A stretch of 36,778 bases of DNA. Origin: Jimgerdemannia flammicorona (taxonomy: Eukaryota). Where the stretch lies: the NCBI GenBank assembly GCA_003990765.1, contig RBNJ01000201.1:1-36778 (forward strand). Reading direction: 5' to 3'. How positions within the stretch are numbered: position 1 is the stretch's first letter; each line of letters starts with the position of its first letter. A model generated the notes under the pieces. It saw only the letters and a list, made by a program, of their open reading frames with translations. It was not told the origin of the DNA and made no database searches. The position numbers were made by a program, and so were the translations under genes. Positions 18,443 to 21,364 of the stretch are shown here, piece after piece.

Positions 18443-19709
18443 ATGCCAGCAGAAACCCCTTCAGACACCCCTTCCTCTCGCTTACGCAATCGCATCAGGG
18501 AGGACACCCCATCATTAGTCCAGCCAAACCCCAGTCGAAGGAACGACACTCCCAAACCTCAGTCGACACAGCTCACCCAGAATCAAGTAACGCCTAAACC
18601 GCAAATCACACCCAAATCGATTCTTGACTCTAGCGACAACCATGAAGAGGGTAACTCCGATGACGAAGCTCCTGAGGCCGTTTCCATCTCGTCCAGTAAG
18701 ATAGAGGCGTTGCAGGCGGCTCAGCTGGAGAAGGAATTCTCCCAAAAGTAAGTGTATGATATGACATCCATCTTGGAGTCGTATGTCGAATAAACCCTTA
18801 TATATTCACTGTTAAGCAATTAATTAAAAAAAAAAAAAAAAAAAAATCACAGGCTCCAAGCGGCCCAGAAAGAAAAACGGCGCCAACGCGACACGAAGCT
18901 CAAAGAACAGAAAGAAGGCTCGAAAAGATCCAAAAAGACGACCTTTGAGAACAAGGATGCGGATACTCAAGAGACGTCCATTAAAAGAAAGAATCAGCCT
19001 GAAAAGCCACCACAAACTGAACACGACGTTTCGAACACGTTAGTGGCTGACCAAATTTCTGAAACCCGAGGCGAGGTTGATAAGGATGGGACCGAGATGC
19101 CGTTCAAAAAACCCGTATTACCGACTTTATTGCCATTGGATATGCTAGAAGATGTGGCGAAAGAGGAGGCCGAGCAGCGAAAGAAGCGGAAACATTTGCG
19201 GCTGGATGATTTCGATGCGATAGCCAAAGAGGAGGAGGAGGAAGGGCGAGAGACGAAAAATAAACTGAAGCGGAAAAAGACGAAGACGGAGGGCAAGAAG
19301 GTTGGGTGAGTTTAGGTGTTGTAGGGCCTCTTGTATGAATGCCTTGTCGGATGATTCTAATACTACTTCGTTCTTATTTGGTAAAATATGCCTGCAATAC
19401 GCATTGTCATTTTTCAGACCGTTCACAGTGGTCATCTTGGACAAACCATCACCGAAACCAGCCCCAGTTGCATCACACATTCAGAATTTCCGAGAAAGCC
19501 ATTTCTTTGGAAATGGTCGGGTACCAAGAAAGGATGGTGAGTTACTTTTTGCGTTTTCTACACTTGGCACACCACGTCTTGTAATATGTTGTGTTCAACA
19601 GACACTTATTTTACATACAGCTATCTTGAATATCAGTCAAAAAAATCGCGGGGCAGCGGCGGTATTCCGACGCCAAAACCCGGCTGGCCCGCCGCTAAAA
19701 AAAATATAG
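18443..19709 (+). CDS. U3 snoRNA-associated nucleolar protein (Bud21/Utp16-like); exons 18443-18747, 18853-19305, 19418-19536, 19621-19709
   Basis: SDDEAPEAVS motif, KEKRRQRDTKLKEQK, LPTLLPLDML and FRESHFFG..R.PR. Canonical splice sites keep the frame. Confidence 0.7.
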
Positions 19710-19986
19710 TAATGATGAGGTTAGCATGCAGCAATGTATTTTTAATAGACATGATTCGTGACAAATACGGATAGCAGTCAATACCGACTGCATGGCGCAG
19801 CGGGTGGTGGCTGAATGATAATTAGATATTTTTGGCACAAAATGAATCGTGTTGGGCTCCTAGCTGAACAAGTGGTCCAATCAGCGCCTTCCCCAGACGC
19901 CGAGGCTCCATAAAGTCCCTTTCTTCGTGCTGCCAACTCTCTAGGTCCTCCTTTGTTCGTTCTATACATATACCGGAGCCCACACC

Positions 19987-21158
19987 ATGTCCTGCACAAA
20001 CTTCGTCGACCTGACAGCTATACCGGACATGGTGACTCCAACCCAAACAAACTCAACAACAGAGACCCTCACCACCATGTCCATGGACCCTCAAACTCCC
20101 ATCGCTCCTGCCCCTTCCACCTCCACAACCTCCACTGTCCCGTCCGTGACCCAGGTCACTGGTGGCAGGAAGAGGAAGGCTTCCCTGGATGATAAGGACG
20201 CGAAGACGAGGGAGCGGTGAGTTGATTTTTGCACTGCTAATACTCGTTGAACCGACGATTTACATCGTGTACCTGTACCGTGCTAGAGAAACTGGTTGCC
20301 TGACTCAAATATTTATTTCTTAACTCCAGAATCTTGCGCAACCGTGCCGCCGCCCAAGATTCGCGGGACAAGAAGCGCCGCTACGTCGCCGACCTCGAGG
20401 ATGCCAACAACGACCTCAAAACAGACAACGAGCGTCTGTCCAAGCGCGTGAAAGTGGTAGAGGAAGAGAACGCCATTCTCTCTGCGCGGCTGGAATCCAT
20501 CGCCGCCCAACTCTCACAAATCCAAAGCCAGCTCCGGTTCAACGAAATCACTCAGTTCTTGTTTGACGGTTTTCGCGAGTCAGCAGCACTCGCGAGCGTA
20601 GTTGGCAGGGACCGCAACGCCCGCTCTCATGTTCGTGGTAATGATAAACACGAAGAGCCTGCATTGCGTTCCCAGCCTTCTATTTCCCAGCAGCGGAAGC
20701 CATCGGATCGGAACAAAGTGATGACGTCGACCACCGCGAGCTTGGCCAATCGACACCGGCCTCCTCGCTTTACACATCCGAAGACGACGACCTTACGGAT
20801 TCTCCTTCCTCCCCCGAAGCGTCGTCTTCGTCGTCCTCGTGCTCCGACGTGTCGCCTTCCCCCCTCCTCTCGTCCGAGGCTGACCCAAAACTCAAGCTCG
20901 AGCCAGGCCTTCAGGTCGATGCTGATTTTCTTCTCGATGATCTTCTTGACTGGGAAGGCCAGCAACCTGTTCTACCCCTCGTCCTTTTTGAGGATGTCCC
21001 CGTATGATTACATGTCGTCTGGCCGCTCGGAGGAGGAAATTGCCACCGCCGATCGCGCGCTTGCCCTGTTCGCAAGAACTCTCGAACGAGGCAACCCCAG
21101 GATGAACCGGAGGTCCATCCTCAAATGGAGAGACGAATTCGCTAAGCGCCCACCTTGA
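19987..21158 (+). CDS. HAC1: UPR bZIP transcription factor HAC1/XBP1-like. Spliceosomal intron 20217-20329. Unspliced form ends at 21158 (352 aa); IRE1-spliced form ends at 21007 (266 aa)
   Basis: GRKRK...KTRERILRNRAAAQDSRDKKRRYVADLE basic region and leucine zipper, followed by ESAAL, the XBP1-type junction motif, and two IRE1 hairpins. Confidence 0.9.
20584..20690 (+). other. Predicted IRE1-excised unconventional intron (107 nt)
   Basis: Hairpin 1 TCGCGAGT-CAG|CAGC-ACTCGCGA (20573-20595) and hairpin 2 TTCC-CAG|CAGC-GGAA (20684-20698). Removal shifts the frame into an open acidic tail. Confidence 0.85.
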
Positions 21159-21261
21159 CAACCGAACCTGGAGTTCGCCTATCGTTCGCATACTATCGTT
21201 GTACGTTTTGCATATATATGTAGATAGTAGTTTTTTTTTTTTCCGGTACTTATCATTTCAA

Positions 21262-21364
21262 ATCCCCTTCGAACCCCCCCCCTGCAACCCCACCCTCCTC
21301 GAACCCCACCCCCTGCAACCCCACCCTCCTCGAACCCCATCCCCCTCGAACTCCACCCCCTTCC
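21262..21364 (+). repeat. C-rich tandem repeats (CCCCTGCAACCCCACCCTCCTCGAACCCCA-like) downstream of the bZIP stop
   Basis: Two near-perfect ~31-bp units plus partial copies. Confidence 0.8.

Follow-up and report, generated by a model that had tools for sequence, protein, structure and literature searches.

Is the long frame that runs on through the IRE1-type intron of a fungal HAC1 gene a by-product of the activation domain encoded one frame over, or is it translated and selected as a device that brings its own mRNA to the endoplasmic reticulum (ER)? The question is raised by a locus of Jimgerdemannia flammicorona, an Endogonales fungus, on a stretch of 36,778 nucleotides (nt) of contig RBNJ01000201.1, the whole of which is referred to here as the window. 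Positions 19987 to 21158 of its forward strand are a HAC1/hacA-type bZIP gene, i.e., a member of the HAC1/XBP1/bZIP60 class of IRE1-spliced bZIP factors that serve in the UPR (unfolded protein response). A preliminary description of this DNA had seen a dual-coding tail like that of metazoan XBP1, with an acidic activator in the spliced frame and, in the unspliced frame, a hydrophobic segment and a possible stalling tail. As set out below, the evidence leans slightly towards the view that the unspliced HAC1 mRNA is translated to a protein, Hac1u, whose tail is a selected device for stalling and ER delivery and not a by-product.

Downstream of the intron, two frames of the forward strand are open. 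The frame of the unspliced mRNA (U frame) is open from 20304 to a stop codon at 21156 to 21158 and ends ...RRSILKWRDEFAKRPP; the frame entered after splicing (S frame) is open from 20648 to its stop and ends ...DADFLLDDLLDWEGQQPVLPLVLFEDVPV. The third forward frame contains nine stops across the same stretch. The U frame extends 191 codons beyond the 5′ IRE1 cut and 50 codons beyond the S-frame stop. The coordinates originally given for the stretch open in both frames, 20691 to 21007, were confirmed by the frame analysis, as was the composition of the two products: the S tail, described as acidic and serine-rich, contains 24 Asp/Glu, 3 Lys/Arg, and 20 Ser among its 104 residues and ends with a conserved D-x-L-L-D-W motif, while the 104 U-frame residues across the overlap include 21 Lys/Arg versus 1 Asp/Glu, with the hydrophobic run AFRSMLIFFSMIFLTG beginning at 20907 as stated. 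In the whole U protein, hydropathy peaks at this run. Averaged across 15 and 19 residues, its Kyte-Doolittle values are 1.77 and 1.38, respectively, which is moderately hydrophobic and under the usual transmembrane cut-off. The corresponding peak of an XBP1u-like protein (P0066) is 1.63. A Pfam search with both tails returned, beyond bZIP, only coiled-coil noise. Taken from this single sequence, the open U frame is suggestive and only mildly unlikely, and the weight of the argument comes from relatives. Specifically, when the overlap was shuffled with the S protein and its codon set held constant, the U frame stayed open in 7515 of 20000 cases. Uniform synonymous draws left it open in only 73 of 20000, and the 50 U-only codons were open in 3504 of 20000 mononucleotide shuffles. 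The features of the gene are collected in Table 1.

Table 1. Features of the HAC1 gene in the window (U, unspliced frame; S, spliced frame; UTR, untranslated region)
Feature	Position	Strand	Details
HAC1 exon 1	19987..20216	+	ATG at 19987, donor GT at 20217; annotated alike in the database protein P0001
Spliceosomal intron, 113 nt, GT..AG	20217..20329	+	Skipped in one RNA contig each of X1, X2, and X3
Exon 2 to 5′ IRE1 cut: bZIP basic region and zipper, end ...DGFRES(A)	20330..20583	+	Pfam; identity to Endogone
5′ splice-site hairpin: 9-bp stem, 7-nt loop CAGCAGC at 20581-20587	20572..20596	+	Cut after G20583; hairpin scan and minimum free energy (MFE) fold
IRE1-type unconventional intron, 107 nt (mod 3 = 2)	20584..20690	+	Between two CAGCAGC loops; U frame open throughout
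3′ splice-site hairpin: 5-bp stem, loop CAGCAGC at 20688-20694	20683..20699	+	Cut after G20690; U frame encodes SQQR
Dual-coding overlap: acidic S activation tail, basic U tail	20691..21007	+	S codons 20693-21004, stop 21005-21007
U-frame hydrophobic region AFRSMLIFFSMIFLTG	20907..20954	+	Hydropathy peak of whole U protein
S-frame activation motif DADFLLDDLLDW	20918..20953	+	Same bases as hydrophobic region
U-only coding stretch (3′ UTR of spliced mRNA)	21008..21155	+	Open in U frame
C-terminal motif W-R-D-E-F-A-K-R-P-P-stop	21126..21158	+	CCA CCT TGA (21150-21158), then C
3′ UTR, to about RNA contig ends	21159..21282	+	X2 contig to 21242; loose ends at 21282 enter C-rich repeat

The two frames are linked by an intron bounded by two hairpins whose 7-nt loops both fit the CNGNNGN type; the predicted cuts follow the third base of each loop, and 20691 is the first base past the predicted 3′ cut. 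The MFE fold of the RNA from 20555 to 20720 (-67.2 kcal/mol, z = -4.39; none of 200 shuffles folded as well) contains both hairpins and, in addition, a helix closing the two exons. The preliminary description had implied a metazoan-sized intron of 20 to 29 nt, which has to be replaced by the 107-nt intron. A 29-nt intron (20662 to 20690, CUG/CAU), the first guess from the frame shift, was dropped because of the perfect 9-bp CAGCAGC stem-loop at the 5′ site and because a spliced Glomeromycota cDNA (contig L001) is joined, as ..GSA/AARQDEE.., at the position homologous to the cut in the window. An equivalent 5′ hairpin was found by the hairpin scan in Glomeromycota and Mortierella-type metagenome loci. 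The Rfam model for the Hac1/Xbp1 intron (RF04247) matched the 5′ hairpin only, with 19.3 bits against a gathering score of 41, since the model expects a short intron; other Rfam hits were chance matches to small nucleolar RNAs, e.g., SNORD35 (E = 0.27) over the hydrophobic run. Removal of the 107 nt switches the frame to the acidic activation tail. The claim of an XBP1-like dual-coding tail holds in this sense: an IRE1-type intron exchanges a basic tail with a hydrophobic run for an acidic activation tail.

The X2 RNA contig spanning 20329 to 21242 has the spliceosomal intron removed and the 107-nt intron retained; the unspliced mRNA exists and is the assembled form for the gene of the window. 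Pairing between the intron and the 5′ UTR, as in yeast, was looked for as well. The best match of the intron to the 5′ region, 13 nt at 85% complementarity, falls onto the 5′ hairpin and was treated as chance, so that a yeast-type translational block is not evident. The peptides ..ESAAL.. (20581 to 20589) and ..SQQR.. (20685 to 20696), the latter appearing as SQQR or SPQR, are kept in all unspliced forms; as they are encoded by the IRE1 loops, their conservation reflects a constraint on the RNA, not on the protein.

Variations on the intron were seen elsewhere. In Rhizophagus-type transcripts, a GT..AG spliceosomal intron seems to be nested within the IRE1 intron (L002, about 520 to 560). Its removal shifts the frame, and the unspliced protein then ends ..SPSSGTSR just past the 3′ IRE1 site; the Rhizophagus-type proteins P0004 to P0006 and P0058 are thereby without the hydrophobic and Pro-Pro-ending tail, and the gene models P0008, P0009, P0019, and P0052 patch around it. 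In a Glomeromycota metatranscriptome contig (L006, 599 to 660), ..GATTATG is joined to CAGCGG..., 27 nt downstream of the canonical 5′ IRE1 cut; this junction stays in frame with the activation tail (..SAVSAALDYAAARQDEE..) and may reflect either an alternative cut site or a chimera formed during assembly. In chytrid HAC1 genes (Rhizophlyctis, Borealophlyctis, Spizellomyces, and Geranomyces; L011, P0067, P0068, P0070, and P0071), a 20-nt intron lies between two CAGCAGC hairpins, and a Mortierella-type locus (L009) has an intron of 62 nt.

Homologues of the protein were collected by three word-seeded protein searches and one exhaustive profile search, which yielded 119 distinct sequences. Gene callers normally annotate the unspliced form, so that database proteins show the U frame directly. 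Conservation in relatives had been set beforehand as a point on which the proposal could fail; the U frame, the hydrophobic run, and the C-terminal end were all found to be kept. Thirty-one of the 119 fetched homologues end in Pro-Pro. They include Jimgerdemannia, Endogone (P0002), Calcarisporiella thermophila (..NKWPP; P0080), and many Glomeromycota (Rhizophagus, Funneliformis, Glomus, Gigaspora, Dentiscutata, Diversispora, Geosiphon, and Ambispora; ..PRDWRKYPP). Further endings of this type are ..EWRNWPP, ..EWSKYPP, and ..DAQPP, and the unspliced tail is also kept in P0025/L014 and P0047. When eight diverse tails were aligned, no column was invariant except those of the last two prolines. 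A Trp is found among the last 10 residues in 30 of the 31 Pro-Pro-type tails (the exception being P0113), 2 to 9 residues before the end.

Relatives retain the hydrophobic run in the form MLIFFSMI, FSIVFWTxTG, or LTFSILSWIWTG. From the end of the run to the C terminus, 54 to 67 residues were counted in 11 sequences, with 67 in the window; the distance is 91 in P0113 and 46 in the XBP1u-like P0066. The aligned end of the run was used for this purpose because the 15-residue hydropathy peak often lies elsewhere or the gene model comes without the run; measured from the hydropathy peak, the spacing over 29 Pro-Pro-ending proteins ranges from 32 to 156. Between the window and Endogone, 15 of the last 16 residues and 29 of 47 aligned residues of the U-only stretch are identical, both indels in that stretch being in frame; of the seven indel events found past the intron, none breaks the frame. 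Two root metatranscriptomes contain a strain variant with a 3-nt deletion at 21014, likewise in frame.

Hydrophobic unspliced tails with other endings occur in more distant lineages. Those of Mortierellomycota (P0072 to P0112, L009) contain a long hydrophobic stretch (..MMVFLTNILPQLMLNFSTLFLISTG..), followed by 95 to 140 residues and a conserved end ..[LF]x[LF][RH]KK-stop (..LRKK); their ..ARGLLVKALL.. is shared with ..SVKALRG.. of Glomeromycota. The chytrid tail has a run HPLAFIxAxAxLHSMV approximately 70 to 90 residues before an end of the form ..NFP[VIM]L[RQ]xIW.. (like ..FPVLRKIW..).

Selection on the U frame was assessed with DNA from one metagenome scan, which gave 15 loci (Glomeromycota, Mucorales, Mortierella-type, and chytrid), five of them Glomeromycota loci with the second exon. 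Over 43 U-only codons, the two most distant Glomeromycota pairs (L003 versus L005 and L006) showed U-frame ratios of nonsynonymous to synonymous substitution (dN/dS) of 0.12 to 0.15 at a dS of 1.1 to 1.3, whereas the same bases read in the other two frames gave 1.1 to 2.7; across all 10 Glomeromycota pairs, the U-frame ratio ranged from 0.12 to 0.72. Variable sites of the U-only stretch are distributed over the three U-frame codon positions as 14, 8, and 23 of 42 each (Fisher p = 0.003). The dN/dS comparison across orthologs suggested in the preliminary description points to coding-type selection in the U frame, and the U-only stretch of Glomeromycota is, judged from these alignments, under purifying selection in that frame. 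Within the Glomeromycota overlap, the proportion of synonymous differences (pS) is lowered in both frames, to 0.31 to 0.47 versus 0.66 to 0.72 in the single-coding bZIP part, which is the pattern expected of dual coding. The proline codons vary (CCA CCT, CCA CCA, or CCG CCA) and so does the stop codon (TGA, TAA, or TAG); such synonymous proline codons and different stops indicate a constraint on the peptide. The base after the stop is C in six of seven sequences, and a C directly after the stop codon makes for weak termination.

The hydrophobic run and the S-frame activation motif share the same bases, as seen in the overlapping pairs DADFLLDDLLDW/MLIFFSMIFLTG in the window and DLFDSFLDYDW/LIFSIVFWTMTG in Glomeromycota, with similar pairs in L014 (S-frame motif DLLDTFLDLDW) and L009 (LFDSFLDLDW). 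The second codon base of the U frame is the wobble base of the S frame, so that S codons ending in T make the U frame hydrophobic. How far the run follows from the motif was gauged by synonymous draws: with the window's own codon usage, a table built from 80 codons only, none of 20000 draws was both open and as hydrophobic as observed, compared with 83 of 20000 under uniform usage. The own-usage result indicates that the run in the window is not a free by-product of the overlapping motif. With their own usage, L014 and L009 reached the observed run in 0.5% and 1.9% of draws, respectively, and in AT-rich Glomeromycota the activation motif, read in the shifted frame, largely accounts for the run, which comes nearly free. 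The hydrophobic run thus looks selected in the lineage of the window, and the argument is weaker elsewhere. In a minor X1 contig (depth 353 of 1530), G>A at 20914 and T>G at 20916 change R-S of the U frame to K-A, the residues Endogone has there, while in the S frame the first change is silent and the second is V>G; this variant could stem from a second allele, from a paralogue, or from a related strain.

Several known systems offer themselves for comparison. The best parallel for the fungal tail is Selaginella moellendorffii bZIP50u, a plant bZIP60 orthologue in which Pro-Pro-stop stalls the termination step (Imamichi et al. 2024, PMC11077094). An alanine scan abolished stalling only at the last two prolines, which lie approximately 50 residues past the hydrophobic region and must be followed directly by the stop, and a stall mutant with both prolines changed and the stop displaced showed less cytoplasmic splicing; plant bZIP60u orthologues likewise stall approximately 50 residues past the hydrophobic region (PMC11077094). 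Both systems have the unspliced mRNA of an IRE1-spliced UPR bZIP factor, a hydrophobic region tens of residues before the stop, Pro-Pro directly preceding it, and a tail that is replaced after the IRE1-induced frameshift. The differences are that bZIP50u belongs to a different kingdom and has no detectable sequence relationship to the fungal protein, and that stalling was shown there whereas a sequence motif stands for it here. In addition, the fungal gene has, like XBP1/HAC1, its activation domain within the spliced tail, where it overlaps the run; an open U frame traverses the 107-nt intron; the spacing is 54 to 67 rather than approximately 50 residues; and the fungal tails carry a conserved Trp upstream of the two prolines.

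In animal XBP1u, a peptide of approximately 26 residues arrests elongation with Met260 in the P site while the hydrophobic region HR2 recruits the signal recognition particle (PMC6624018). The fungal gene resembles XBP1 in its dual-coding exon past the IRE1 intron, in the exchange of a basic tail with one moderately hydrophobic segment for an acidic activator tail (PMC6624018, PMC4456659, PMC11077094), in a 5′ loop that encodes ..ESAAL.. in both (P0066), and in a conserved end at tunnel-plus-linker distance from the hydrophobic segment, i.e., 67 residues in the window. It differs in a tail without similarity to the arrest peptide with its W249-W256 turn and in the size of the intron (107 versus 26 nt). 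Saccharomyces cerevisiae HAC1u combines an intron-5′ UTR translational block with a bipartite 3′ UTR element (PMC11077094, PMC4891664). The two genes are alike in the orthologous bZIP, in the IRE1 hairpin loops, in a spliced tail that is the activation domain, and in an intron long relative to that of filamentous ascomycetes, but the unspliced yeast open reading frame (ORF) ends a few codons into the intron, whereas that of the window runs on as described. The unspliced tail of Mucorales is, as in yeast, very short. In Aspergillus and Trichoderma hacA, the unspliced second-exon frame is also long and conserved, though with an intron of 20 to 23 nt; a 2026 Ascomycota review describes this product as one that may have a function (PMC13703316), and the terms hydrophobic, pausing, and co-translational do not occur in it. 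In the 2024 plant study, the word "fungi" does not occur and HAC1 is treated as the yeast case (PMC11077094). For Rhizopus HAC1, a non-canonical intron is reported in a 2023 preprint, which does not mention the tail. Among the papers listed by full-text searches of open-access literature and bioRxiv, none describes the unspliced product of a fungal HAC1 gene as containing a hydrophobic region or as causing a stall.

From these data, we infer translation of the unspliced mRNA, a pause at Pro-Pro-stop, and delivery of the HAC1u mRNA to the ER, in a sequence of steps that may be pictured as follows. When the ribosome reaches the stop codon, the moderately hydrophobic segment encoded 67 residues before it would already be outside the ribosomal tunnel. 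The invariant W-x(n)-Pro-Pro-stop would slow termination, with the pause expected at 21150 to 21158, and the paused complex of ribosome, nascent chain, and mRNA would gain time to reach the ER membrane. There, IRE1 would cut both CAGCAGC loops and remove the 107-nt intron, and the shifted frame would swap the tail for the acidic activation domain. Functionally, this is proposed to be the strategy of XBP1u and bZIP60u, with a stall of the Pro-Pro-stop termination type.

A number of observations weigh against such a delivery device. Mucorales have lost the tail, their U frame stopping a few codons past ..GFCDSA, and Mortierellomycota and chytrids keep a hydrophobic U tail without the Pro-Pro ending. 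The run itself is short, with Arg, Ser, and Lys around it, and its 19-residue hydropathy is 1.38; in AT-rich Glomeromycota, 5 to 16% of synonymous draws are open and equally hydrophobic. The dN/dS data come from Glomeromycota DNA, outside the window's own Endogonales lineage. The spacing of 67 residues exceeds the approximately 50 of animals and plants. No RNA contig of X1 to X4 from the gene of the window joins 20583 to 20691; X3 and X4 contigs end at 20567 and 20553 and resume at 20693 and 20712, respectively; as a sign of a mixed population, this gap is weak at best, and it was not used as evidence. Finally, eIF5A normally relieves Pro-Pro problems in eukaryotes, and the pause may be weak.

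Other readings of the tail have to be set against these points. In the likeliest of these, translation and selection of the U tail would serve a functional domain of the Hac1u protein that works, e.g., as a negative regulator of Hac1s, a degron, a segment for nuclear export, or a membrane tether comparable to the transmembrane domain in plant bZIP60u; the Pro-Pro ending would serve protein function or stability, with neither mRNA delivery nor a meaningful stall involved. It would account well for purifying selection over the whole U-only stretch, beyond its end, for conserved amphipathic stretches such as VFVDDIVISELIRLL and ADRALALFARTLER, and for the Mortierellomycota tails, in which the run is longer and more hydrophobic, the distance to the stop greater, and the end a different one; the proposal in the Ascomycota review that the long, conserved unspliced hacA product of Aspergillus may itself function fits as well (PMC13703316). 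Left unexplained are the two prolines before the stop, the sole invariant residues of the Pro-Pro-type lineages, and the constant spacing of 54 to 67 residues. We consider a domain acting in place of a stall unlikely, with the proviso that the two functions are compatible, since XBP1u does both.

That the open U frame and the run are by-products, with conservation past the S stop due to an RNA element in the 3′ UTR (e.g., for yeast-like targeting), is disfavoured by the alignments and in our judgement very improbable. The idea has its merits: read one base later, the activation motif gives Ile, Phe, Leu, and Thr codons, and the frame would be annotated simply as the longest ORF, the database proteins being automatic gene models. 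In every lineage the run sits exactly on D-x-[LF]-D-x-[FL]-L-D-x-D-W, the T-G of the U frame arising from D-W of the S frame, and both the Glomeromycota draws and the 7515 open frames among the 20000 codon-preserving shuffles of the window agree with it. What speaks against it is that the U-only stretch behaves like protein in the U frame alone (dN/dS of 0.12 to 0.15 in the most distant pairs; 23 versus 14 and 8 variable sites), that indels are all in frame, that the Pro-Pro and stop codons change synonymously, that in the GC-richer window 0 of 20000 own-usage draws match the observed hydropathy, and that Endogonales, Calcarisporiella, and Glomeromycota all keep the frame open as far as the same ending. 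Least credible of all is true homology of the C-terminal peptide to the XBP1u arrest peptide, acting by elongation arrest through a Trp-framed turn in the tunnel, to which the preliminary description had pointed on account of position and a Trp. The Trp within the last 10 residues of nearly all Pro-Pro-type tails and the chytrid ends ..FPVLRKIW.. recall XBP1u, which pauses a single codon short of its stop, W249 and W256 framing a turn (PMC6624018). The relation nevertheless did not stand up: a profile of the tail searched against 1.84 billion representatives gave 10 matches, none of them XBP1u; hhalign of this profile with the XBP1u-like P0066 returned a probability of 0.07; and a PDB sequence search gave five chance matches (E ≥ 0.3) and no XBP1u chain. 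The Trp varies in position, from 2 to 9 residues before the end, and Endogonales have four extra residues between WR and KRPP. The invariant Pro-Pro-stop is a better candidate for the stall than an arrest peptide of the XBP1u kind. The earlier interpretation is partly supported: the fungal tail would represent a variant of the nascent-chain and stall strategy with a Pro-Pro-stop ending.

The remainder of the gene conforms to its class. Residues 2 to 50 of exon 2 match the Pfam families bZIP_2 (2.5e-08) and bZIP_1 (7.1e-07), and 78 of 85 residues of exon 2 before the 5′ cut are identical in Endogone. Among database proteins, P0001, entered for Jimgerdemannia flammicorona itself as a "hypothetical protein", comes closest, with exon 2 100% identical, followed by P0002 of Endogone sp. 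with 67% identity across the whole query; HacA is the name given to homologues by their database sources. RNA contigs of X1, X2, and X3 join 20215/6 to 20329/30 across the spliceosomal intron. Metatranscriptome contigs of HAC1 begin at 19967 to 19977, and the X2 contig over HAC1 extends approximately 1.1 kb upstream of 19850, into the adjacent gene on the forward strand, which comprises Lys-rich ORFs at 18824 to 19709. Aspergillus hacA is an example of a 5′ truncation that depends on stress. Downstream of HAC1, after a T run at approximately 21232 to 21244, a C-rich tandem repeat occupies 21264 to 21361, with units of 16, 31, or 47 nt and the consensus CCCCCTCGAACCCCA; X1 and X2 RNA contigs fray at this repeat, and one X1 contig skips 21314 to 21377.

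According to the fungal model, which is that of yeast, a 3′ UTR element targets the silent HAC1 mRNA ahead of its translation (PMC11077094, PMC4891664), whereas in animals and, according to the 2024 study, in many plants the mRNA is brought to the ER by a stalled ribosome and its hydrophobic nascent chain (PMC11077094). The conserved run and Pro-Pro-stop in Endogonales, Calcarisporiella, and the sampled Glomeromycota suggest that the yeast model does not represent fungi, and the nascent-chain route may be common to three kingdoms. A tentative extension, to which we give less than even chances, is that stall-assisted co-translational delivery is the ancestral fungal route for HAC1, with the yeast mechanism and the short tail of Mucorales as later replacements. 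A dual-coding module of approximately 36 bases would then have been kept from Mortierellomycota to Glomeromycotina and Endogonales, and several Mucoromycota would pause by Pro-Pro-stop, an ending reached independently by a lycophyte; the seemingly comparable hydrophobic unspliced tail of chytrids fits this picture. The locus offers a compact test case, made up of two prolines and about 12 hydrophobic codons, and a clean example of ancient dual coding, with codon choice in the activation motif limited by the targeting segment and vice versa. It also bears on the UPR in mycorrhizal fungi, whose symbiotic life depends heavily on secretion.

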